A DNA stretch of 58,902 bases from a virus (taxonomy: Duplodnaviria; Caudoviricetes), in IMG/VR virus record IMGVR_UViG_3300032320_001902, positions 1 to 58,902 of that record; one strand, written 5' to 3'. Below are positions 27,228 through 43,129 of this stretch, in pieces. Made by a program: the position numbers and the translations under genes. Positions within the stretch are counted from its first letter, which is position 1. Every line of letters starts with the position of its first letter. Below the pieces are notes generated by a model, which was not told where the DNA came from, did not search any database, and was given only the letters and a program-made list of their open reading frames with translations.

Positions 27228-27920
27228 ATGAAAACCTACATTGCATACTACCGAGTAAGTACAAAGCGACAAGGCGAATCAGGTTTAGGTTTGGAAGCAC
27301 AAAAACAAGCTGTTAACCTATACGCCAAAAATAATGGCCGTATATTGCAAGAGTTTACAGAAGTTGAATCAGGTAAGAAGGATAAACGACCTCAACTTGA
27401 ACAGGCGATAAACCAATGTAAACAAAAAGAAGCAACTTTGCTCATAGCTAAGTTAGACAGACTAAGTAGGAATGTATCTTTTTTGTTTACTTTGAAGGAA
27501 TCAGTTAACTTTGTTTGTTTAGATTTACCCGACCTTAACACCTTAACCCTGGGCATCTTCGCAACGATGGCACAGCACGAAAGGGAACTGATAAGCAAAC
27601 GAACAAAGGCTGCATTGCAAGTCAAAAAATCCAATGGAGTAAAACTCGGGAAACCTGAAAACCTAAACTATGAGGCCGCAGTTAATGGTGGGATAGCAAG
27701 GAAAAGAGCCGTATGGGAGGATAACAACAAAGTCCAAATATACGAGTACATCAAAATGTATATTGCCGCCAACCCTGACTACCTTCTGAAAGAGATTAGT
27801 TATAACCTTAATCGCCTTGGCTACAAACGAAGCGGTTACATAACAACCGATGGGAAGGATTTCACACCTCAAAATGTGTGGTATCTAATAAACTATTACA
27901 AACAAGAAAATTTACTTTAA
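27228..27920 (+). CDS. Serine recombinase (resolvase/invertase family)
   Basis: 'YYRVSTKRQ', 'ESG....RPQL', 'AKLDRLSRN', 'ERELISKRTKAAL...K..G.KLG'. Confidence 0.92.
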   Translation: MKTYIAYYRVSTKRQGESGLGLEAQKQAVNLYAKNNGRILQEFTEVESGKKDKRPQLEQAINQCKQKEATLLIAKLDRLSRNVSFLFTLKESVNFVCLDLPDLNTLTLGIFATMAQHERELISKRTKAALQVKKSNGVKLGKPENLNYEAAVNGGIARKRAVWEDNNKVQIYEYIKMYIAANPDYLLKEISYNLNRLGYKRSGYITTDGKDFTPQNVWYLINYYKQENLL

Positions 27921-30131: not shown

Positions 30132-30343
30132 TGGAAAGCCTAAAAACATTAGCCACCTTTAAGGTAGAAATATTCTACGATTTAATCAACCAAGGCGATG
30201 AAGAAACCTTCTATATCAGAAGGGTTGAACCTGTTAACCTTGACGATATTAAAACAGAACTTGAATCCTGTTTAGTATGCGAAAGAGGCAATCCCGAACT
30301 TGACAGAAGCCACGTTAAGTTTAATCAAAACGTAATTGCGTAA
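30131..30343 (+). CDS. Hypothetical protein
   Basis: 70 aa, coupled to neighbours. Confidence 0.55.
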   Translation: MESLKTLATFKVEIFYDLINQGDEETFYIRRVEPVNLDDIKTELESCLVCERGNPELDRSHVKFNQNVIA

Positions 30344-30771
30344 TGAAACTATCCTTCCCCACTAAAGTAATTAATGGTCAAATATCGTCTAATAGGCAGC
30401 CAATTGCCGAAGCGATAAAATCCTTTGAAGGGAAGGAAATAGTTCTTACAATCGAAAGGAAACGCAAGAAAAGAAGCAACGAACAAAACGCCTATCTGTG
30501 GGGAGTAGTTTATCCAATCCTCAAAGATGGATTTTATCAAATAGGGTACAAATTAACAACCGAAGAGGTACACGAACTAATGAAGCAAAGTTTTGTTAAA
30601 GTTGATTTAGTGAACGAATCAACAGGGGAGGTGAAAACTATCACGGGACACACCTCAAACCTAACAACTTCGCAGTTTATGGAGTATCTTGCAGACATCA
30701 AACAATTTGCGGCGGAGGAATTAAACGTGTATATTCCCGACCCGAACGAACAAGTAAATTTTAATTTTTAA
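30343..30771 (+). CDS. NinB/Orf-like recombination protein
   Basis: 'KKRSNEQNAYLWG', 'HE.MK', 'TSNLTTSQFMEYL..I...A'. Confidence 0.7.
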   Translation: MKLSFPTKVINGQISSNRQPIAEAIKSFEGKEIVLTIERKRKKRSNEQNAYLWGVVYPILKDGFYQIGYKLTTEEVHELMKQSFVKVDLVNESTGEVKTITGHTSNLTTSQFMEYLADIKQFAAEELNVYIPDPNEQVNFNF

Positions 30772-30784
30772 AACCAAATAAACA

Positions 30785-31417
30785 ATGGCTATCAACGCAA
30801 CCAACAAAGGGGTTAAAAGAGAATTAATCCCATCAGGCAACTACCTTGCAAGGTGTTACCAAATGATTGAACTTGGAACAATCAAAGAAAGTTTCCAAGG
30901 TGAGGACAAGATGCTTCACAAAGTAAGAATAGGCTGGGAACTGCCAACCGAAAAAAAAGTGTTTAGCGAGGAGAGAGGTGAACAACCTTGTGTGATTTCC
31001 AAGGAGTACACCTTGTCAATGAACGAGAAAGCAACCCTTCGTAAGATGCTTGCTTCTTGGAGAGGCAAAGATTTCACCGAGGCGGAAGCAAAATCCTTCG
31101 ACATCACAAAACTTCTTGGTGTTGCTTGTATGCTTAACATCATTGAAAAACCAAGCGCAAAGGACGCTTCTGTTGTTTACAATGAAATCGCTTCTGTTTC
31201 ACCAATGATTAAAGGAATGGAATGTCCATCACAAGTCAATCCAAGCTTTGTTTTTGAACTTGACAACTTCGACAAAATCAAGTTTGAATCATTGCCCGAT
31301 TTCATCAAGGACAAAATCAAAACTTCGGAGCAGTACGCAAAACTAAAAAGCCCTACCGAAACACACATCTCAAGCAACCACGCTTCATCAGTTGAAGAAG
31401 ACGAAATTCCTTTCTAA
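30785..31417 (+). CDS. Putative ssDNA-binding protein
   Basis: 'IPSGNYLARCYQMIELGT', 'KLLGVACMLNI', acidic C-terminal tail 'EEDEIPF'. Confidence 0.6.
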   Translation: MAINATNKGVKRELIPSGNYLARCYQMIELGTIKESFQGEDKMLHKVRIGWELPTEKKVFSEERGEQPCVISKEYTLSMNEKATLRKMLASWRGKDFTEAEAKSFDITKLLGVACMLNIIEKPSAKDASVVYNEIASVSPMIKGMECPSQVNPSFVFELDNFDKIKFESLPDFIKDKIKTSEQYAKLKSPTETHISSNHASSVEEDEIPF

Positions 31418-32337
31418 TGATGGAAAAATCAAACATTAAAGCACACGGCATTGGAGGTTCTGACATTGCCGCAATCAGGGGGTTTAACGATTACGTTACC
31501 CCCTTCCAAATCTGGCAACAGAAAACAGGCAAAGCCACAAAAGGTGAAATTTCCGAAAAGCAACTTATTGGAATCAAAATCGAACCCTTCATCCTTCAGA
31601 TGGGAGTTGAAAAAATCAACCACGAAGGAGGATTAATTCGCCTAACCCACGAAAGATTGAATAAGGAAATGTTCACCAAGGAAATCGGTATTGTTGCCGT
31701 TCCTGATGCCTTTGCAAGGTTGGACTATGATGAAATTATTATTTCCTTGAAAAACACCCAACAGCGGATTGAATCAATTGAAGATGTTCCCGTATATTGG
31801 ATTGAACAAATCAATTGGGAGTTGGGAATTTGCGGCCTAAAAACAGGCATCATTTTCTACCTTAAAAATGGCAGTTCAATTGGTTCAATGCAATGGACAT
31901 TCCAGGAGGATTTATTTGAGGAACAACTTGAATCTGCAAGGAATTTTTGGCACAACCACGTCTTAGCCGATGTTGCGCCTGAACCTGTCAACGCAGAGGA
32001 CGTTCTTGAAATGTTCCCGAAAAGCAACGCCAAGTCAATTGTTGCCGATGATGGAATCGTTGAATTGCACAAGGCCCTTGGTAATGTTCGCAAGGAGTTG
32101 ACAAGGCTTGAAAAGGAGGAAGAAATTATCATTGAAAGTATCAAGATGAAGATGCTTGACAATGAGGTTCTTATAAGCCCCGAAGGAAAGCCACTTTTCA
32201 CTTGGAAGGGAGGGGAGGAAACGACAAAGTTGGATAGCAAGAAACTGAAAGAAACCTATCCTGAAATCGTGGAGGAATGTTCAACCGCTTCAACAACACC
32301 AAGGAAGTTTTTGTTTAAACCACTTAAAGACAAGTAA
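31417..32337 (+). CDS. YqaJ-like viral recombinase exonuclease
   Basis: 'GIGGSDIAAIRG...TPFQIWQQKTG', 'PDA', 'FWHNHV...PEP'. Confidence 0.8.
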   Translation: MMEKSNIKAHGIGGSDIAAIRGFNDYVTPFQIWQQKTGKATKGEISEKQLIGIKIEPFILQMGVEKINHEGGLIRLTHERLNKEMFTKEIGIVAVPDAFARLDYDEIIISLKNTQQRIESIEDVPVYWIEQINWELGICGLKTGIIFYLKNGSSIGSMQWTFQEDLFEEQLESARNFWHNHVLADVAPEPVNAEDVLEMFPKSNAKSIVADDGIVELHKALGNVRKELTRLEKEEEIIIESIKMKMLDNEVLISPEGKPLFTWKGGEETTKLDSKKLKETYPEIVEECSTASTTPRKFLFKPLKDK

Positions 32338-33610: not shown

Positions 33611-33782
33611 TATCTTTGCTATCGTTAAATGTCAAGGATTGGACACCCTTGAAACAAAAGCATTAACACCAATGGAAAATTACATTATCACCACAAACAA
33701 ATTCTACTCGGAAGTACGGCTTAATGTAAGCCATCCAGTCGTTGTGTCCAGAACGATGTGCTTCCGAGTAGGCTTTTGTTTG
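33611..33782 (+). promoter_or_regulatory. Promoter plus structured attenuator-like leader of the replication operon
   Basis: TATCTTTG at 33611-33618; hairpin with loop TGGACAC; 14-bp stem 33704-33717/33758-33771 plus U-tract enclosing a hairpin with loop GTGTCCA. Confidence 0.65.
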
Positions 33783-33784
33783 AT

Positions 33785-34312
33785 ATGAAAAGAATTGCAA
33801 TAGGAAAAAAAACAAGGTTTGAAGTATTTAAAAGGGATAGCTTTACTTGTTGTTATTGTGGAGCAAAAACTCCAAATGTTGTTTTAGAAATAGACCACAT
33901 TATTCCTGTTTCAAAGGGAGGCAGCAATAGCTTAGATAATTTAGTTACATCATGCTTTGACTGCAATAGAGGAAAATCGAACAACGACCTAAGTTCAGTA
34001 CCATTAACCATTATTCAAAAAACCGAAATTGCAGCCGAAAAAGAGGCGCAATATTTAGAGTTTAAAAAGGTTCAATCTAAAATTGAAAAAAGGATTGACA
34101 AAGAAATTCAAAAGCTATGCGAAGTTTATGAGGATTATTTTCCTGATTACTATTTAACAAACAACTTTAAGCAATCTATAAGAAAGTTTATTGAAAAATT
34201 GGGATACTACTTTGTTTTACAAGCATTACATAAATCATGCTCTAGGCTTAACGCTAATCAAAGTTTAAAATATTTCTGCGGAATTTGCTGGACTAAAATT
34301 AAGGAATCATGA
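33785..34312 (+). CDS. HNH endonuclease domain protein
   Basis: 'RFEVFKRDSFTCCYCG...LEIDHIIPVSKGG.N...NLVTSCFDCNRGKS'. Confidence 0.88.
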   Translation: MKRIAIGKKTRFEVFKRDSFTCCYCGAKTPNVVLEIDHIIPVSKGGSNSLDNLVTSCFDCNRGKSNNDLSSVPLTIIQKTEIAAEKEAQYLEFKKVQSKIEKRIDKEIQKLCEVYEDYFPDYYLTNNFKQSIRKFIEKLGYYFVLQALHKSCSRLNANQSLKYFCGICWTKIKES

Positions 34313-35085
34313 ACGGATACGAATTAACTCGAAACTGGTTTAACTTCTCATTTGAAAATCACGAAGCTAAGGTTCAGCATACAGCCCTTTTTTGTTGGAT
34401 AGTTGAACTTAATAACAGGCTTGGATGGAAAAAGGAATTTGGACTACCAACTATTGATACAATGGAGGGTTTGTCGATTGGAAATAAAAACACCTTTTTA
34501 GCGGCATTATCAGACCTCGAAAAGTGGGGTTTTATCAAAATTGTTAAGCCTTCAAAGAACCAATATCAAGCCTGTATTATATCAATATGCTGTAGCGAAA
34601 GTGCAACGGCACAAGGTACGGCATTGGATACGGCATTGCAACAGCAGAGTAACGGCATTGGGTACGGCACTGCACACGGCAGTGTCCCTATAGATAAACA
34701 AATAAACAAAGAAACTATAAAGAAGAAAAAAAATATTGAAAAAAAAGAACTAAGGTCTGTAGAGGAAAGGCAGAAAGATTTTTACAACGAACTCAAGTCT
34801 TATGTTGAAACTTATGGTGCACCTATGGTAAGGGCTTTTTATGATTATTGGAGTGAACTGACAAATGATGGAAAGTTAATGAATAAAGAAACAAGAAAAA
34901 CTTGGGAAACTAAAAAAAGGCTTGCTACTTGGCAGAGAAACGATAACCAAAAATTTGGCAACAACCAAAAGCCGCTTAAAGACCCCAAAAAGCCCGACCG
35001 AATAGTTTACGACGTTTTCGAACTTGACAAATATTATTACCCTGACGGAACTCAAATCCCAATAGACCAAGTTAAACATGATTGA
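34309..35085 (+). CDS. Phage replication initiator (lambda O-like architecture)
   Basis: N-terminal wHTH, low-complexity linker containing DNA repeats, C-terminal 'FYDYWSE...TWETKKRLATW'; directly upstream of the helicase. Confidence 0.7.
   Translation: MNGYELTRNWFNFSFENHEAKVQHTALFCWIVELNNRLGWKKEFGLPTIDTMEGLSIGNKNTFLAALSDLEKWGFIKIVKPSKNQYQACIISICCSESATAQGTALDTALQQQSNGIGYGTAHGSVPIDKQINKETIKKKKNIEKKELRSVEERQKDFYNELKSYVETYGAPMVRAFYDYWSELTNDGKLMNKETRKTWETKKRLATWQRNDNQKFGNNQKPLKDPKKPDRIVYDVFELDKYYYPDGTQIPIDQVKHD
34606..34750 (+). repeat. Iteron-like ACGGCA array plus A-rich tract (putative origin)
   Basis: ACGGCA at 34606, 34618, 34630, 34652, 34664 and 34676; ACAGCA at 34641. Confidence 0.6.
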
Positions 35086-37072
35086 AGCAGCATTAAAATA
35101 TTGGGAACAAGGCTTTAACGTCGTTCCCTGCAATAGCAAAAAAATTCCAACCTCAAAATCTTGGAAGGATTGGCAAGAAAAGCCTACCCCTCCCGACGTT
35201 ATGAAGTTCCAAGAAAAGAACTGCGAAGGAATAGCCGTGGTTTGCGGAAAAGGAAACGGAGGGCTTGAATGTATCGACATTGATTGCAAGTACGACCTAA
35301 CAGGAACTTTGTTTGAAAGGTACAAAGAACTTATACACAAAAACGACCCAAGCTTACTCAAACAACTTGTGGTTCAAAAAACAGGCAGCGGTGGGTATCA
35401 CTTCTTTTACCTCTGCGACAACTACCAAGGCAATAAAAAGCTTGCCAACAGGTACACCACCGAGGAAGAAAAAAAAGGACAAGACGATAAAGTAAGAGTT
35501 CTGATTGAAACAAGAGGCCAAGGAGGTTACGTTTGTTGCGTTCCAATGAAGGGGTACTCTTGGGTTTATGGCGACTTAACCAAGCTAAAAAAGATTACCA
35601 ACGAGCAAAGGGATATTCTGATATTAACCGCAAGGCTTTTCAACGAGGTTGCCGACAACGTAACCAAGCCGACCAAAGAAGAACAAGTTTACGAAAAGTT
35701 AGACAGCAACCCCTTTGACGATTTTGCCAAACGAGGGGACATTATTCCCTATTTTGAGGAAGCTGGTTGGGCTGTGGTTTTTCAGCAAGCAGACAAGATT
35801 GCACTCAAGCGACCAAATAGTGAACATCCTTATAGTGGATACGTTTTTAAAAATACGCAGATTTTCTTTTGCCATTCGACGTCAACTGCCTTCGACAATG
35901 AAATAGGTTACACGGCTGGCAAAACGCTCGCAAAACTAAAATTTAACGATAATTTGGGGGATACTGCAAGGTATCTTCTATCCCAAGGTTTTGGAGAAGA
36001 GAAAAAAATCGAAAAAAAGGATGAAATTGAATCTACTTTTTCCAGCAAAAGGATAAACTCCGATGATGAAGATTTAAGTTTTCTTGCAAGCGAAGAAGAG
36101 GTAAACGATTATGTTATCAAAAAAAGGACTAACACCTTCAAGGTTGGGCTTTCAACAGGCTTTCCAAAGTTTGACGAATATTGGAGGTATAAAGATGCTC
36201 AATTTGAAATGGTTTTAGGTCACGACAATAGCGGTAAAACTATCGTTACCCTCTACATGGCAACCTTGGATGCAATGATGCACGGAACGAAATATGCGAT
36301 TTATGCTGGCGAAAATAATGTTGGAGGGGTAAAGCTTAGAATTATTGAATACTATCGTTGCCGCAAAGTTGAATCAATGACAGAGCAGGAACTCAAAGAA
36401 ACAAACGAATGGTTTTCAAAGCACTTTTGGCTAATAAGAAACGACGAGGTTTGGTCTTACATGGACATGCTTGTGATGGGCAAAAAACTTGGAGAAAAGT
36501 TTGGCATAAACAAAATTATCATAGAACCTTACAACGTGCTTGAAAAGGAAACAACCAATGAGCATCAGTACGACTACAAGGCAATGAGAGATATGCGAAT
36601 TTTTATCAAAAAAACAGGCATTGGAATAATGTTAAACATTCACGCAGCAACCGAAGCTTTGAGGAAAACCTACCCAAAAGAACACGAATACTTTGGTTAC
36701 ACAATTCCTCCAAACAAAGCCGATGCCGAAGGCGGAAGCAAGTTTCCAAACAAAGCCGACAATCTTCTTGTAGTTCACCGAATGGCCGACCACCCTACTG
36801 AATGGGTTTGGACAGAATTACACGTCCAAAAGGTGAAAGAAATGGAAACGGGGGGTAAAAGAACTTTTAAGAACGAACCCTTTAAAATAAGAATGATACA
36901 CGGAGGAGCTGGCTTTGAAGATACTAATGGGCTTAACCCCGTTTTAGACTATTGGGATAAAAAAGAAAAGCCTGTTCAACAATCCATAAAACCCAACAAT
37001 GATTTCGACGTAAAGTCGATTTCGACCCCACGAGCCAAGCAATCAGAAAGATTTCCCGACCCCGACTTTTAA
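35078..37072 (+). CDS. Bifunctional primase-polymerase fused to an SF4 (DnaB-like) helicase
   Basis: Prim-Pol motifs 'LECIDID', 'TGSGGYHFFY', 'ETRGQGGYV'; Walker A 'GHDNSGKT'; 'NKADN'. Confidence 0.85.
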   Translation: MIEAALKYWEQGFNVVPCNSKKIPTSKSWKDWQEKPTPPDVMKFQEKNCEGIAVVCGKGNGGLECIDIDCKYDLTGTLFERYKELIHKNDPSLLKQLVVQKTGSGGYHFFYLCDNYQGNKKLANRYTTEEEKKGQDDKVRVLIETRGQGGYVCCVPMKGYSWVYGDLTKLKKITNEQRDILILTARLFNEVADNVTKPTKEEQVYEKLDSNPFDDFAKRGDIIPYFEEAGWAVVFQQADKIALKRPNSEHPYSGYVFKNTQIFFCHSTSTAFDNEIGYTAGKTLAKLKFNDNLGDTARYLLSQGFGEEKKIEKKDEIESTFSSKRINSDDEDLSFLASEEEVNDYVIKKRTNTFKVGLSTGFPKFDEYWRYKDAQFEMVLGHDNSGKTIVTLYMATLDAMMHGTKYAIYAGENNVGGVKLRIIEYYRCRKVESMTEQELKETNEWFSKHFWLIRNDEVWSYMDMLVMGKKLGEKFGINKIIIEPYNVLEKETTNEHQYDYKAMRDMRIFIKKTGIGIMLNIHAATEALRKTYPKEHEYFGYTIPPNKADAEGGSKFPNKADNLLVVHRMADHPTEWVWTELHVQKVKEMETGGKRTFKNEPFKIRMIHGGAGFEDTNGLNPVLDYWDKKEKPVQQSIKPNNDFDVKSISTPRAKQSERFPDPDF

Positions 37073-37092
37073 TAATTTAAACAACAAATAAA

Positions 37093-37791
37093 ATGAGCAA
37101 CTTAAATAATTTAATCCAGCAAGAAAACGTAACAATCAAGGACGCACAAATCCCAATTATCCAAGCCTACTTTGATAACTTGGAAAAAAATTTAATTGAC
37201 AAAATAAACCAAAACTCCGATAAGTTGATTTTTGGCTGCGTTGCTTGGTTAACCTCCGAGCCTGTTCTGAAGGCTTTGTCAAAGTGCGATAATGTCCAAA
37301 TTCTTATTCAGAAAGAAGACTTTCTTCGCCCTGACATAAATAGCAGAAATAGTTGGTCTATAAAATTAAGGAAGCTTTATGCCGATTTAAAGTTTAACCA
37401 TTTTAGGTTTGAGTTAAAAGACCCAATCCGAGAACTTTCTATTTGCGACGAACCAGTTATTTATCCCGTAATGTGCGTCGGAAACCATAACAAAGAAAAG
37501 CACCCCGCCTTCCCAAGAAGCCACCACAAGTTTTTGGTTTTTTGCGAAAAACGTGGCAAATTGGACGAATATAAAATTGACTATGCCCCTATTGCCGTAT
37601 GGACAGGTTCTTTCAACTTTACAAAGAACGCAACCCATAGTTTTGAAAACGCACTTTACATTGAAGACAAAAGCGGCAACAATCCTATACTCCAAGCTTA
37701 CCTTAACGAGCATCATCAAATATTTACCTTGTCTGAAATGCTTGATTGGGAAACTACTTGGATTGAGCCAAGATATAGAATTGGGACTTAA
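37093..37791 (+). CDS. Phospholipase D-like nuclease
   Basis: 'HHKFLVF...VWTGSFNFT..A..S.EN'. Confidence 0.75.
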   Translation: MSNLNNLIQQENVTIKDAQIPIIQAYFDNLEKNLIDKINQNSDKLIFGCVAWLTSEPVLKALSKCDNVQILIQKEDFLRPDINSRNSWSIKLRKLYADLKFNHFRFELKDPIRELSICDEPVIYPVMCVGNHNKEKHPAFPRSHHKFLVFCEKRGKLDEYKIDYAPIAVWTGSFNFTKNATHSFENALYIEDKSGNNPILQAYLNEHHQIFTLSEMLDWETTWIEPRYRIGT

Positions 37792-40334: not shown

Positions 40335-40701
40335 CAATACAAAAGGAATGGTTTTTATTATTGCTATAATAGCTGTAACGTGGATTTCACTAGCCTACAT
40401 TTTTGTGTACAAACCACAACAACCCCAACCCCTCCAACAATTCGAGCAGTTCAAGTTGGCTACAACCTAGACAAAGTTGGAAAGGATTCAGTCCTGACAA
40501 TTAAGGGGCAGTTTGTTAGGCAAGTTGGGGATAGGGTTTATGTGAAGGTGAATTAATGAAGCGGTGTAAAGGACAGGCAGACCCAAAAAAAACGCTAAGT
40601 ATATTGATACGATTACTTAGTTGATTTTATTTTGCCTACCTGCTGTTAGGTGTCTGTAAAAAATAAATTTAGCGTGGGTAATAACTTAAATACAAAACAA
40701 A

Positions 40702-40887
40702 ATGGGATTTTTAAGCGGAATGTTTAGTGCGGTAGTAAAAACAGCACTAACACCAGTAGCAATCGTAAAAGATGCAGTAAACGTAGTAATAGGCGAAGAA
40801 GCCGATGCCACAAAATCATTACTTGAAAGTGCTGCCGAAGATGTATCAGATGCAGCAGATGATTTAGGTGATGGAGAAATGTTGTAG
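40702..40887 (+). CDS. Cassette gene, small amphipathic/acidic protein
   Basis: 61 aa inside unit 40645-40930. Confidence 0.6.
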   Translation: MGFLSGMFSAVVKTALTPVAIVKDAVNVVIGEEADATKSLLESAAEDVSDAADDLGDGEML

Positions 40888-41103
40888 AATGTTGGGTGCG
40901 GTGGGAAATTTATTTTTTATTGCACCTAACGTTTTGCGTGTATGTGCATTTTATACCCGAAGGGGTATGATATATCATTCATTAACTATAATTATACCCG
41001 ATAAGGTATGATAAGTCATTCAAATAAATTGCACATAACGGTTCTCGGCTTTGTTTAGTGCGGGATTATGGAAACGAAATTATCAACTTAAAAATAAATT
41101 AAA

Positions 41104-41307
41104 ATGGAAAACGAAAATTTGAATGAAGCAGTAAACCCCGCATTGAACAAAACCGATGTTAGCGGTAGTTTATATGGGCTATACTCAATTGATAACGAAT
41201 TGATGTTTGTGCATAAGACAAGAGAAGGTGCAAGAAAACACCAATACGAATTTGAAAAAGCACACGGAATGGGATTTTATGTTGACCCTGTGATAGTGTT
41301 GGAATAA
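41104..41307 (+). CDS. Cassette gene, hypothetical
   Basis: ATG lies in the hairpin loop; the stop overlaps the inverted end. Confidence 0.6.
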   Translation: MENENLNEAVNPALNKTDVSGSLYGLYSIDNELMFVHKTREGARKHQYEFEKAHGMGFYVDPVIVLE

Positions 41308-41373
41308 ATTACCGCTAACGTTTTGCAGATTGCCGAAGGGCGTGATTTTAACCACTAAATTAAATAAGAAGAT

Positions 41374-41634
41374 ATGAACTCAAATTTAACCACCAAAGTT
41401 TCTACGGAGCAGGAAGCCACGCCTTTTGGCAATGTGCTGTTACCTGCTGTGCCATCCAAAAAGCCTAAATGCTACAATTGCAAATTTGCAAGTTCAGCGT
41501 TTAAAATTGCTGGAAAGACACACCATCAATGTAACCATCCGAAGCACGAAGCAGGATTTGAAAGCGGTGAACTTTCTCCTTGGGACACTTTACAGGAATT
41601 TTATAACACTTGCGATACTCACGAATTTCGTTAG
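41374..41634 (+). CDS. Cassette gene, Cys/His-rich protein
   Basis: CYNC...C..H...C..H; ATG lies in the hairpin loop. Confidence 0.6.
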   Translation: MNSNLTTKVSTEQEATPFGNVLLPAVPSKKPKCYNCKFASSAFKIAGKTHHQCNHPKHEAGFESGELSPWDTLQEFYNTCDTHEFR

Positions 41635-41716
41635 GCATTGCAGGTAACGGTTTGCAGATTGCCGAAGGTGGGGCATTAAACCACTAATGTTTAATTGAAA
41701 TACAAAATTTGATAAT

Positions 41717-41953
41717 ATGAAAAATGTTGATTTGAAAAATGAAACCCCCACTTTTGGCAATGTGCTGTTATGTGATGTTTGGGTTCGAGCAGATAAGCCT
41801 GTTAGAGAATATCCTTTGGGAACGAAATTCAAAGCCTTAATGGGTGGACACTGGATTAGAGTTGAAAGAGGTTTTAAATGGTGTACTGGTTCAACGTTCC
41901 CAAATGTCGGAGGTGATTGGACTGGTGAGGTGTGTCTGCCAAATATCACCTAA
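41717..41953 (+). CDS. Cassette gene, hypothetical
   Basis: Shares TPxFGNVLL with the previous gene; the TAA stop lies within TAAC. Confidence 0.6.
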   Translation: MKNVDLKNETPTFGNVLLCDVWVRADKPVREYPLGTKFKALMGGHWIRVERGFKWCTGSTFPNVGGDWTGEVCLPNIT

Positions 41954-42038
41954 CTTACTTATAGGGGATATAAATAACACGAATTGCCTATTATTTCAAT
42001 AGGGGGAAATAACTTTAATAACTAACAACTAAAATAAA

Positions 42039-42337: not shown

Positions 42338-42535
42338 ATGAGTACATTTAAAGAACGTCTTATTGACGAAAAACAACAACTCGATGAAAAGATTGAAAAA
42401 CTAAAATCTTTTATCCAAAGTGAAAACTTTCAAAAAATTGAAGCGGTTCAAATGTCGTTACTAAATGCACAAATGTTTGCAATGTCAACGTACAGCCAAA
42501 TATTGGCAGAACGGCTTGCTTGGTTAAAAGAATAA
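42338..42535 (+). CDS. crAss001_48-like small coiled-coil protein
   Basis: 'F.ERL..EK.QL.EKI.KL..FI.S..F......LL..Q..AM..Y..IL.ER' pattern. Confidence 0.7.
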   Translation: MSTFKERLIDEKQQLDEKIEKLKSFIQSENFQKIEAVQMSLLNAQMFAMSTYSQILAERLAWLKE

Positions 42536-42721: not shown

Positions 42722-43129
42722 TTATTGAATAGTCAACTCAAAACTTTCTTTATTAAAGAACCCTTCCAAACTCTCTGTGGCAACCCTGCTTGATGTTCCA
42801 TCAATAACTCCGTCATTATTAATATCGGCATGATTTAAGCAAGGAGCAATGCACCCTTTTAATTGGTTTGAAAAATTAGCTGGGTGAAACAATATTCCAT
42901 CCCGACCTTTCACATTGACAACTCTATACGTTTTCTTTTTCAATCGTGGCGAAGAAACAAACACCACAGAGTAAGTTCCCTTTGGAATGCAAGAAATGCT
43001 GCTTTTATTTTCTTTCCAAGGCAGTTCAATCGTTTTTAGTGATAATGTTTCACCCTTGGCATTCGATAGGCTCATTTCGCCTAATGTGACGTTTTTTTGA
43101 TACGTCCTTGTTATGGTTGCTTTATTCAT
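42722..43129 (-). CDS. DUF5675-family protein, probable endolysin/peptidase
   Basis: 'TIELPWKEN...SCIPKGTY', 'V.GRDGILFHPAN....LKGCI'; next to holin-like genes; promoter TACCTTTG at 43134-43141. Confidence 0.75.
   Translation of the reverse strand: MNKATITRTYQKNVTLGEMSLSNAKGETLSLKTIELPWKENKSSISCIPKGTYSVVFVSSPRLKKKTYRVVNVKGRDGILFHPANFSNQLKGCIAPCLNHADINNDGVIDGTSSRVATESLEGFFNKESFELTIQ

Follow-up and report, generated by a model that had tools for sequence, protein, structure and literature searches.

The region between positions 40630 and 41954 of the window (the whole stretch of viral DNA that was analyzed, 58,902 nucleotides in length) is best explained as a small array of mobile gene cassettes, subject to a phage-borne, integron-like exchange on folded DNA, the catalyst of which is unknown. 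We put the probability of this reading at about 0.6. The anatomy of the units, the pairing of each cassette's own ends, the covariation of the hairpins and the position of the breakpoints were all directly observed.

The array is composed of five units. The original prediction had described them as having inverted ends and the second as degenerate, and all of the features that it listed were found at the positions it gave. An intact unit starts with a hairpin of approx. 120 nt, which is enclosed by TAAC and GTTA; a gene then follows, and its two ends (GTTA...TAAC) pair with each other over 15 bp. The components of the array are as follows:

40630..40652, + strand: upstream edge of the array, with a hairpin 3' arm surviving as a remnant (TTTTGCC...CTGTTAGGTG; direct-repeat family)
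40645..40930, + strand: cassette 1, whose own ends GTTAGGTG and CACCTAAC pair
40702-40887, + strand: gene of cassette 1 (61 aa, unknown function)
40931..41039, + strand: unit 2, degenerate and without an ORF; ends GT-ATGTGCA and TGCACATAAC, terminal sequence CACATAAC
41040..41157, + strand: hairpin of unit 3, family 'GGTTCTCGGCTTTGT'; arms 41045-41067 and 41134-41156 (23 nt, 83% complementary)
41158..41319, + strand: body of cassette 3; own ends GTTAGCGGTAGTTTAT and ATAAATTACCGCTAAC, G.T pair at position 11, score 13.5 of 14
41104-41307, + strand: gene of cassette 3 (67 aa), starting inside the upstream hairpin
41320..41438, + strand: hairpin of unit 4, family 'GCAGATTGCCGAAGG'; arms 41325-41344 and 41418-41437 (20 nt, 85%), ATG 41374 in the loop
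41439..41648, + strand: body of cassette 4; own ends GTTACCTGCTGTGCC and GGCATTGCAGGTAAC (41439-41453 and 41634-41648, 15 nt, 87%)
41374-41634, + strand: gene of cassette 4 (86-aa Cys/His-rich protein)
41649..41766, + strand: hairpin of unit 5, of the same family as that of unit 4; arms 41654-41673 and 41746-41765 (20 nt, 85%), ATG 41717 in the loop
41767..41954, + strand: body of cassette 5 and end of the array; own ends GTTATGTGATGTTTGG and CCAAATATCACCTAAC, score 12.5 of 14, junction TAAC/T (here and below, a slash within a site marks the joint)
41717-41953, + strand: gene of cassette 5 (78 aa), whose stop codon is the TAA of TAAC

The remnant at the upstream edge is similar to the 3' arms at 41424 and 41752, the matching 5' arm is absent, and contigs of runs X3 and X5 differ from the window upstream of 40629. 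Cassette 1 also contains a perfect 14-bp helix (40657-40670 with 40906-40919; 14 nt, 100%), and pieces of X3 break off at 40930, from where they continue unlike the window. In unit 2 only the start of the hairpin 5' arm is left (GTTTTGCGT); this unit contains a directly repeated 41-nt sequence (two copies, 40951-41022), and in each copy ATACCC and GGGTAT form a small stem. The inverted ends of cassette 3 extend over 16 nt (41158-41173 with 41304-41319, 94%).

The predicted imperfect arms of the approx. 120-nt elements lying between TAAC and GTTA proved to be 20-23 nt long and 83-85% complementary. The start codons at 41104 (preceded in the loop of the unit 3 hairpin by an A-rich leader), 41374 and 41717 are indeed placed inside the hairpin loops, and translation of the right arms likewise agrees with what had been proposed. 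The hairpins of units 4 and 5 differ, as read from the sequence, by three pair changes with the pairing kept. None of the four cassette proteins had a Pfam match above the cut-off or a PHROG match. When the whole window was scanned for GTTA...TAAC pairs, only the three intact units reached a score of at least 12.5 of 14 on the + strand; shuffled sequences gave 1.45 such pairs per window.

Arrays of this type occur commonly among Bacteroidota phages, those of Flavobacteriia included. A simple detector, applied to phage sequences, yielded 395 elements distributed over 89 of them, compared with 26 elements in shuffled ones; 54 of the 89 carried at least three elements on one strand, and runs of 9 to 15 consecutive units were present in Flavobacterium phages. 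A strict GTTA/TAAC scan detected no elements in phage P12002L, the architecture of which, read from its sequence, matches that of the window; its cores include GTTG and CAAC, and the detector was therefore broadened to GTTR/YAAC. An exact 24-nt hairpin arm recurs in 35 IMG/VR stretches and the exact 19-nt 5' arm of the unit 3 hairpin in 46, and a homologue of the latter hairpin sits before a DNA methyltransferase in Flavobacterium phage mumin9-1. The tested hairpin family is nearly missing from bacteria (six short MAG contigs among 185,579 species genomes). A search for close relatives of the window phage, with its primase-polymerase as a query, yielded only two loci at 24% identity, and synteny was therefore compared by means of Flavobacterium phages and contigs from other samples. 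No protein of the window has a counterpart in mumin9-1 or snork9-1, and P12002L gave only a weak HNH match.

Our literature searches, which did not cover supplements, revealed no prior description of this architecture beyond that of Qi et al. 2023 (PMC9892861). As far as the accessible part of that paper goes, this closest prior report describes attC clusters without an integrase (CALINs) in virulent phages, 17 in number, P12002L being called as one of them. It also reports that one predicted attC of this Flavobacteriia (Polaribacter) phage recombined with attI1 under IntI1 in E. coli. The same part of the paper gives two predicted sites in P12002L, and it is not established that these are the same as the elements described here.

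Analysis of 228 distinct cassettes revealed that the pairing joins the two ends of a cassette itself, and does not extend across the hairpin to the preceding cassette. Watson-Crick pairs between own ends occurred at frequencies of 82-100% at positions 1-9, 65% at position 10 (plus 10% wobble) and 63-80% at positions 12-15, falling to background from position 16, compared with a maximum of 27-55% (positions 5-10) when each cassette was paired with the 3' end of the previous one. Position 11 of the 3' arm is a T in 227 of the 228 cassettes and is nearly never Watson-Crick paired, its partner being G (185 cases), C (23), T (14) or A (5). One cassette of mumin9-1, whose 5' arm mismatches its own 3' arm at three bases, is unaccounted for by this simple model. 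The junction that a circularized cassette would contain was predicted (DNA parameters) to fold with a median of −23.9 kcal/mol, compared with −17.0 kcal/mol in the array context, and was more stable than the array form in 205 of 226 cassettes; the values for window units were −24.7 vs −13.6 and −31.3 vs −18.1 kcal/mol.

The hairpins follow a general plan: a 5-bp box (TAACG with TGTTA), a one-sided 4-nt bulge, a stem of approx. 20 bp, and a fixed G.T pair at the foot. Covariation of the arms, the absence of which would have counted against the original prediction, was present: both sides had changed in 3 of 24 predicted pairs of the unit 4/5 family (28 distinct members aligned) and in 7 of 21 pairs of the unit 3 family. 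In one family (37 members), the frame of the 3' arm is 0 in 23 members and 1 in 5, and the arm is not read through in the other 9; in the second family (28 members), the corresponding numbers are 14, 1 and 13. The both-side pair changes, together with these mixed or absent reading frames, indicate that the hairpins are nucleic-acid elements and not protein motifs. Conservation of the arms as a peptide motif was rejected because the frames differ or the arms are unread, and because a homologue of the cassette 5 protein in Tenacibaculum phage Gundel_1 lacks the 21-aa leader encoded by the hairpin.

Both the hairpins and the end helices have a preferred strand, which raises the question of whether they act in mRNA. 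The hairpin could keep the A-rich leader and start codon open in its loop (translation start in Bacteroidota does not depend on a Shine-Dalgarno site), and the end helix with its G.U pair could be a processing site at UAAC/G or protect the end of the cistron, the exchange of DNA being a by-product of microhomology and of selection for intact units. The end helices contain 93 G.T but only 42 A.C pairs, a bias of wobble pairs to the sense strand that an RNA structure would equally produce. On the + strand the hairpins of units 3, 4 and 5 have fold energies of −28.7, −37.4 and −37.6 kcal/mol (z of −2.7, −4.5 and −4.7 against shuffles), and two of the three fold worse on the − strand (−31.5 and −25.8 kcal/mol). 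A function in mRNA would also be in line with the placement of the genes: gene and cassette have the same orientation in 224 of 228 cases, and in these 224 the ATG lies inside the hairpin in 85 and at most 80 nt after GTTA in 99; ORFs never extend beyond TAAC, their stop being the TAA of TAAC in 50 cassettes and located in the 3' arm in 114. It would, moreover, need no linked recombinase. We nevertheless consider such a role improbable as the explanation of the arrays: the Rfam search yielded no family match (only microRNA-like hairpin matches far below threshold), and exact DNA junctions, described below, are left unexplained by it.

The breakpoints are concentrated at one point. From 336 unique internal homology ends, 78 were located within 6 nt of TAAC/G, where 2.3 were expected; 12 were at /GTTA (2.4 expected), 35 within hairpins (19.6) and 159 elsewhere (297). 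Breakpoints at core sites had thus been correctly anticipated. These counts are of alignment ends and not of independent events, many of them coming from closely related isolates.

The gene order is not fixed in related phages, which is a further point on which the original prediction could have failed. Among Muminvirus and Lillamyvirus isolates with flanks that are 99.5-100% identical, whole units have been inserted, replaced or transposed. For instance, the insertion that distinguishes mumin9-1 from mumin6-3 begins just after one TAAC and finishes with the next, and in four phages three different last cassettes all meet the same flank as TAAC/TACAAT. A change of this kind was also found within the study from which the window derives: a contig of run X2, obtained from another sample (289 nt, 0 mismatches), joins 40926 to 41645, with 718 nt missing and five letters (TAACG) that match either side of the joint. 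In runs X2, X5 and X6 the unit 41645-41954 stands as a separate piece between different flanks, and gene bodies are found again in different surroundings with their ends unchanged. Among 21 cassette bodies that recur, two were linked to more than one upstream hairpin type and seven to more than one downstream type; this count, the mumin9-1 indel and the X2 variant agree with the proposal that the mobile unit is a hairpin plus its downstream gene. We conclude that units are gained, lost and moved through exchange at TAAC/G. Several unit-precise changes between isolates this similar, and array ends with only 4 nt in common, are not what a role confined to mRNA would lead one to expect.

The exchange itself might not require a dedicated enzyme. 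The sense strand, when single-stranded during replication or Red-like recombination, could fold so that two short direct repeats (TAACG) are made to meet by the hairpin and the end helix, and slippage or template switching of the polymerase, within one genome or between co-infecting ones, would then yield unit-precise deletions and, through copy choice, insertions. Stimulation of precise excision by inverted repeats is a known recombinase-free process. The joints share 5-7 nt (TAACG, TAACGTT), the carriers have no recombinase in common, and genes for exonucleases and annealing proteins are frequent near the arrays (17 loci of an exonuclease-like family, 9 of an ERF-like family and 9 NinG/Rap-like genes, named by sequence reading); the window itself encodes YqaJ and NinB. 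Slippage, however, gives no reason for a T that is conserved at −11 and almost never Watson-Crick paired; it also fails to account for the G.T pair and the 4-nt bulge fixed at the foot of the hairpin, or for the invariant TAAC, which is the only sequence shared at the array ends. We therefore regard this alternative as weaker still than a function in mRNA.

The genes could likewise be shuffled by ordinary homologous recombination acting on the conserved stem-loops that lie between them, a process proposed for the PeSLs of T4-like phages. The high conservation of the hairpin families (the exact arms noted above) would permit it, the overlaps in a rearrangement of snork9-1 cover about 30 nt of similar hairpin arms, and indels at such motifs are reported in the PeSL papers, as far as their available parts go (PMC4122927, PMC2839356). 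The 35 breakpoints inside hairpins and the 12 at GTTA indicate that homologous exchange in conserved hairpins does also occur. Nonetheless, the peak of the breakpoints is at the foot of the hairpin instead of being spread over more than 100 nt of homology, and the complementarity of the cassette's own ends would have no role. Neither promoter nor terminator signals were enriched: the motif TAnnTTTG was found in 12 of 327 distinct hairpins (12.3 expected from shuffles), and the array region of the window has 8 sigma-70-like sites (5.8 +/- 2.2 in shuffles) and 1 terminator-like site (1.0). The cassettes were therefore rejected as promoter-terminator elements, and as a general explanation of the arrays homologous recombination appears very unlikely.

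The window lacks a tyrosine recombinase, as the original prediction had claimed (no PF00589 match at E <= 0.1 in a record that is 81% complete), but a small serine recombinase, which had been overlooked, is encoded at 27228-27920. It is unlikely to be the catalyst, since its family was found in none of 35 other array-bearing records. Among the 35 array-bearing records, 8 encode a tyrosine recombinase; of the 18 with a completeness of at least 90%, 6 do so. The Y1 transposase (PF01797) was absent from all 35, with the control detected in 6 of 14 known genomes. An integron integrase (TIGR02249) above the cut-off was not found in any of 151 genomes of a likely host family (that of a Flavobacterium MAG), a search in which no positive control gave a signal. 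Hence, no recombinase is linked to the arrays, and the cognate enzyme was not found in the array-bearing records or in the one likely host family.

The interpretation as an exchange of cassettes is thus supported, all of the refuting conditions named in the original prediction having turned out in its favour, without a folded single-stranded substrate or a recombinase having been demonstrated; these, and a circular intermediate, are inferred, and circles cannot be observed in contigs, which alone were available. A unit extends from the base after one TAAC through the next TAAC, i.e. hairpin plus gene body, and the first 15 nt of the gene body (GTTA-N6-G-T...) pair with its last 15 nt (...A-T-N6-TAAC). 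In the most likely mechanism, the sense strand, once single-stranded, would fold. Stacking of the hairpin on the end-to-end helix could bring together the two TAAC/G cut sites that a unit has; TAAC and the mispaired T eleven bases off may then be recognised in trans by a structure-specific enzyme, with strand exchange to follow. Excision would release a circle, with the unit's own 3' end, its hairpin and its 5' end forming one long hairpin; this, by analogy, is the logic of an integron attC site. The enzyme is inferred not to be an integron integrase in most carriers, and may originate from the host.

A more far-reaching version, to which we give slightly less than an even chance, is that phages of Bacteroidota possess a cassette-exchange system of their own, separate in origin from integrons. 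Its site would be of a new type, in which a 15-bp end helix, whose invariant T stays mispaired one helical turn away from the TAAC cut, is stacked on a hairpin that doubles as the translation start of the gene. The catalyst might be a host housekeeping enzyme, or one whose recombinase activity has so far gone unrecognised, and lytic phages would use the system to exchange accessory genes, anti-restriction genes among them, in units of one gene each.

How lytic phages so quickly gain and reshuffle small accessory genes is an open question, for which illegitimate or short-homology recombination has mostly been proposed. Units, borders and constant site features are now defined well enough for direct testing, and cultivable phages and hosts exist (Muminvirus isolates with Flavobacterium sp. 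LMO6 and LMO9). The methyltransferase content of Muminvirus differs among isolates, which the authors, in the part of their paper available, link to plating efficiency (Nilsson et al. 2020, PMC7077304). A cassette system without an integron integrase would broaden the known range of recombination on folded DNA, and cassette flanks alone would make it possible to find accessory and counter-defence genes of phages.

The closest of the known systems is the integron. The phage arrays share with it (i) tandem units, mostly of one gene each, (ii) an imperfect hairpin with AAC...GTT cores, exchange at the core and a mispaired base as a fixed feature, (iii) first bases that pair with the cassette's own distal core, as expected of a former circle, and (iv) DNA methyltransferases as cargo. 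The 3' end of the array, a fixed TAAC/flank junction with varying last cassettes, resembles an insertion point; no attI or common promoter was identified, nor any conserved attI-like sequence common to the window and Muminvirus. The 7-nt attC consensus (RYYYAAC and GTTRRRY) is, by eye, complete at some ends only (e.g. ACCTAAC), the AAC and GTT cores and the hairpin being present.

The differences from integrons are equally clear. On the sense strand, the exchange point of the phage arrays lies 5' of the hairpin, which consequently moves with the downstream gene; relative to the site, the gene is on the opposite strand compared with integrons, and the hairpin therefore precedes its own gene. 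The gene-then-attC order with G/TT exchange does not apply to them, as the 78 ends at TAAC/G and 12 at /GTTA illustrate. The own-end pairing of integron cassettes is about 7 bp long, in contrast to 15 bp with a fixed T.G at position 11 in the phage cassettes, whose hairpin often contains the start codon. Furthermore, most array carriers lack an integrase, and none was detected in the likely host family (again without a positive control). Membership of the integrons in the strict sense is not supported, and because no integron integrase was found, "integron-like" is the right word.

Elements of the IS200/IS605 family also use folded single-stranded DNA, subterminal hairpins and cleavage beside a fixed tetranucleotide. 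The phage units resemble them in the hairpins, the fixed tetranucleotide and, by inference, the folded DNA, but they carry no transposase (in the 35 records, none of the Y1 type), and their end sequences are cassette-specific.

Finally, the PeSLs (promoter-early stem-loops) of T4-like phages (Arbiol et al. 2010, PMC2839356; Comeau et al. 2014, PMC4122927) are, according to the available parts of these papers, conserved intergenic stem-loops that border the small accessory genes of variable regions in lytic phages, with indels between close relatives located at the stem-loops. They consist of promoter and terminator motifs and are said to act via homologous recombination (PMC4122927, in the part available). 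The phage cassettes differ from them in having no enriched promoter or terminator signal, in providing each gene with complementary ends of its own, and in breaking at a single tetranucleotide.

The array (40630-41954) comprises five consecutive units, within which the following components were localized:

40702-40887, 41104-41307, 41374-41634 and 41717-41953, + strand: small genes of the array (four ORFs)
40931-41039: unit 2, a degenerate remnant without an ORF
arms 41045-67/41134-56, + strand: hairpin element of unit 3, between TAAC and the next GTTA
arms 41325-44/41418-37, + strand: hairpin element of unit 4, between TAAC and the next GTTA
arms 41654-73/41746-65, + strand: hairpin element of unit 5, between TAAC and the next GTTA

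The four genes are placed exactly as in the cassette layout claimed by the original prediction. Each gene body is enclosed by inverted ends (GTTA at the start, TAAC at the finish), and the three hairpins (~120 nt each, with imperfect arms of 20-23 nt) carry the next gene's A-rich leader and ATG in their loops. The + strand hairpins have fold energies of −28.7, −37.4 and −37.6 kcal/mol (z-scores of −2.7 to −4.7 versus shuffles); − strand folding is clearly poorer for two of the three, because several of the + strand pairs are G.T. When the entire window was scanned, the three units had GTTA...TAAC scores of 12.5-13.5 of 14 and no further strong pair was revealed (the shuffled window yielded 1.45 pairs scoring 12.5 or more), and a separate detector found no other hairpins in the window.

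The ORF-less unit 2 contains two 41-nt direct repeats (40951-41022; 84% alike), each with a short stem ATACCC-N4-GGGTAT, which may constitute a small RNA or protein-binding module carried as a cassette. A loose end is a contig of the public sequencing run X6, which ends at 41022 in the window and continues with another similar copy of this repeat. Just 3′ of the array are encoded a crAss001_48-family protein (42338-42535, + strand) and a DUF5675 protein (42722-43129, − strand), neighbours consistent with a phage of Bacteroidota.

Blastn searches of annotated phages matched the unit 3 hairpin to 17 Flavobacterium phage records, and the body of cassette 5 to two Tenacibaculum records and one Bacteroides phage record. 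In the Flavobacterium phage mumin9-1 a homologous hairpin lies 5′ of a DNA methyltransferase gene, with the start codon again in the loop, and the early leftward region is entirely a run of hairpin-plus-gene units; a helix scan revealed uninterrupted runs of 9 to 15 units in six isolates of Muminvirus and Lillamyvirus. The 5′ arms of two window hairpins had exact matches in 35 and 46 IMG/VR stretches (contigs of 4 to 172 kb). The exact arm scan of 185,579 bacterial and archaeal species (one genome each) returned only six stretches, each of which lies on a MAG contig (1.6 to 31.5 kb); the scanned hairpin family is therefore all but restricted to phage sequence.

Homologues of the cassette 5 protein are located in tightly packed early-gene runs of Tenacibaculum phage Gundel_1 (locus L004, 1478-1672) and Bacteroides phage SJC03 (locus L005). 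Hairpins and GTTA/TAAC flanks are absent around both, and therefore this gene occurs inside as well as outside the cassette system.

A simple detector was applied to 89 sequences (IMG/VR loci, six Flavobacterium phage records, Polaribacter phage P12002L and the window). It identified 395 elements, versus 26 after shuffling, with at least three on one strand in 54 of the 89 sequences (maximum 18). Defining a cassette as the stretch between consecutive elements, we compared the first and last 20 nt of 228 distinct cassettes. Watson-Crick pairing between a cassette's own ends is 82-100% at positions 1-9, 65% (plus 10% wobble) at position 10 and 63-80% at positions 12-15, and is at background level from position 16 on. 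Between the 5′ end and the preceding cassette's 3′ end, across the hairpin, pairing is merely 27-55% at positions 5-10; the complementarity is therefore a property of each cassette.

Position 11 is almost never Watson-Crick paired, because the T found there in the 3′ arm of 227 of the 228 cassettes is mostly opposed by G (185), C (23) or T (14), and by A in only 5; window units 3, 4 and 5 all have the G.T pair. Elsewhere in the own-end helices G.T wobbles outnumber A.C (93 vs 42), an excess which points to the sense strand as the one that would be folded. The foot of the hairpin is also fixed, consisting of a TAACG/TGTTA box with a closing G.T, a 4-nt bulge on the 5′ side only, and then the stem.

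A fixed gene order in related phages would have refuted the original prediction. We found that the order varies, and that whole units distinguish Muminvirus isolates whose surrounding array segments are 99.5-100% identical. Compared with mumin6-3, mumin9-1 has ~500 extra bases, running from directly after one TAAC to the end of the next TAAC and composed of a hairpin (with ATG in the loop) followed by GTTATGCAA...gene...TTGCATAAC; the only sequence that the two ends of this insertion have in common is TAACGTT. One slot is occupied by a different cassette in each of tooticki6-1 and mymlan6-1, filifjonk9-1 has three additional cassettes at one junction and one at another, and snork9-1 carries, in another slot, a cassette of four genes. 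Where the array ends downstream, three different last cassettes are joined to the same flank in four phages (joint TAAC|TACAAT).

Over 3.6 kb of otherwise identical sequence, mumin9-1 (locus L006, ~5358-5352) and mumin6-3 (locus L008) show only three differences, all located where the 5′ arm of one cassette is variable (GTTATAGGCTG vs GTTAACCGCTG). The mumin9-1 arm mismatches its own 3′ arm at three bases and the mumin6-3 version matches, which is unexplained by the model proposed below. The extra unit of mumin9-1 is inserted after the cassette with the mismatched arm.

Megablast comparison of the 89 sequences (at least 90% identity over at least 150 nt) gave 336 unique internal alignment ends; these are not independent events, and many come from related isolates. 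As had been predicted, homology breaks cluster at the core: 78 of the 336 ends lie within 6 nt of the TAAC|G exchange point of a detected element, versus 2.3 expected for random positions. The remainder fall at |GTTA (12; 2.4 expected), inside hairpins (35; 19.6 expected), in the 40 nt on either side (31 and 21) or elsewhere (159; 297 expected). Homologous exchange within conserved hairpins clearly also occurs, given the 35 ends inside them, but the breakpoint peak is not located there. Among 21 cassette bodies seen more than once, two have multiple upstream hairpin types and seven multiple downstream types, which fits the proposed mobile unit of a hairpin plus its downstream gene.

Public runs, which were seen only as assembled contigs, contain variants from the window's own population. 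In run X2, which stems from the study of the probable source but from another sample, a contig of 289 nt consists of 40895-40926 followed by 41645-41872, with 0 mismatches; it skips 718 nt, and five letters (TAACG) fit both sides of the joint. This contig is a variant without units 2 to 4, joined inside the core. The segment 41645-41954 (hairpin and cassette 5) recurs as a discrete piece in runs X2, X5 and X6, where the sequence on either side differs from the window; the X2 copy is followed by the beginning of a further hairpin. The pieces of run X3 covering cassette 1 end at 40930.

The hairpin arms covary, a property whose absence would have counted against the original prediction. In the inner stems, both sides have changed in 3 of 24 predicted pairs of one family (28 distinct members) and in 7 of 21 of the other (36 members), where column pair 20/117 is GC in 15, UA in 13 and CG in 8. 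Constancy of the outer arms is uninformative, as these were fixed in the search patterns. Some hairpins (loci L057, L061-L063, L065 and others) have the outer arm TCGGCTTTG/CAAAACCGA of one family together with an inner stem (GGTGGGG/CCCCCAC) and a loop motif (CCACTAAACTT) that are characteristic of the other, which suggests that hairpins are themselves mosaics.

That the arms encode a conserved peptide motif was excluded: the 3′ arm is read in frame 0, in frame 1 or not read through in 23, 5 and 9 members of one family (n=37), and in 14, 1 and 13 of the other (n=28). The cassette 5 protein is 74% identical to its Gundel_1 homologue, which starts just ahead of the conserved part and is without the 21 residues that the hairpin encodes in the window.

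The longest ORF is sense-oriented in 224 of 228 cassettes. In these 224 the ATG is inside the hairpin (85), up to 80 nt after GTTA (99) or further in (40), the stop codon is the TAA of TAAC (50), in the 3′ arm (114) or upstream (60), and no ORF extends past TAAC. The co-orientation of cassettes with genes, the start codons in loops and the sense-strand bias are fitted equally well by an RNA role, either start-site display or the processing or protection of each cistron. Such a role may well coexist with one in DNA, but it leaves unexplained the exact DNA junctions with 4-7 shared bases.

Viewed on the folding strand, the observed anatomy is that of an integron cassette array, in which the AAC core lies 5′ and the GTT core 3′ of the hairpin. 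The observed pairing of a unit's first bases with its own distal core would be expected if the unit passed through a circle, where its ends adjoin. Folding computed with DNA energy parameters for 226 cassettes gave a median of −23.9 kcal/mol for the circle junction, in which the upstream hairpin is set between the unit's own 3′ and 5′ ends, versus −17.0 for that hairpin in the array context; the junction was the more stable form in 205 (window unit 3, −24.7 vs −13.6; unit 4, −31.3 vs −18.1). Within a folded array, a unit's hairpin and end helix may stack, bringing its two TAAC|G sites close to each other, and a protein could read the mispaired T that is fixed about one helical turn (eleven bases) away from TAAC, together with the G.T pair and the bulge.

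Since these three fixed features look like marks read by a protein, we favour, with a probability of roughly 0.6, structure-guided, site-specific exchange at the observed breakpoints; the single-stranded DNA substrate, the circle and the trans-acting enzyme are inferred. Recombinase-free slippage or copy choice, at places where structures juxtapose TAACG repeats, would explain why an enzyme is missing, but not the invariant mispaired T.

No linked enzyme was found associated with the arrays. Of 35 array-bearing records, 8 contain a tyrosine recombinase (among the 18 with at least 90% completeness, 6 do) and none a Y1 transposase. The window (58,902 bases, rated 81% complete by IMG/VR) lacks a tyrosine recombinase, as originally stated; it does encode a serine recombinase, which had gone unmentioned and has no counterpart in the 35 other array-bearing records:

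27228-27920, + strand: small serine recombinase (Resolvase N-terminal domain, E 9e-30)
30343-32337 and 33758-37791, + strand: recombination/replication module

In this module NinB and a YqaJ-type exonuclease flank a 210-aa protein of PHROG 862 (unknown function); an HNH endonuclease, a primase-polymerase and a PLD-like protein follow. The window has no proteins in common with mumin9-1 or snork9-1; its single match to P12002L is a weak one, to an HNH protein. No integron integrase (TIGR02249) above the cut-off was detected in 151 genomes from the family of a Flavobacterium MAG, a search that included no positive-control genome.

As far as the available passages go, the report closest to the window architecture is that of Qi et al. 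2023 (PMC9892861), who screened 10,705 phage genomes with IntegronFinder and HattCI+Infernal and described 17 attC clusters without an integrase, presented as integron components carried by phages. One cluster, with methyltransferase cargo, is in the virulent Polaribacter phage P12002L; of the two sites predicted there, one underwent IntI1-dependent recombination with attI1 in E. coli (PMC9892861). We observed the same architecture as in the window in the P12002L sequence, with GTTG/CAAC cores besides GTTA/TAAC; correspondence to the sites of Qi et al. is not established. The passages of PMC9892861 are silent on the 15-bp helix between a cassette's own ends and its fixed T, on the reversal of the unit order, on start codons placed in loops, on the tested hairpin family being nearly absent from bacterial genomes, and on near-identical phages that differ by exact units.

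Nilsson et al. 2020 (PMC7077304) describe Flavobacterium phages with variable methyltransferase content, and in the portion of that text available the words hairpin, cassette, inverted repeat, palindrome and stem-loop are absent. The nearest phage concept, from partial texts, is that of the PeSL stem-loops of T4-like phages (PMC4122927, PMC2839356), promoter-terminator motifs said to work through homologous recombination (PMC4122927); unlike these, window-type hairpins showed no enrichment of promoter or terminator signals. Literature searches found no other description of the architecture.

What the original prediction had observed is confirmed, and the evidence supports its interpretation under the term 'integron-like'. 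With no integrase and a reversed unit order, the array falls outside integrons in the strict sense. It belongs best with cassette-and-folded-site systems, as a variant new to that kind, and may represent a phage-specific system whose site type is its own and whose catalyst is unknown.
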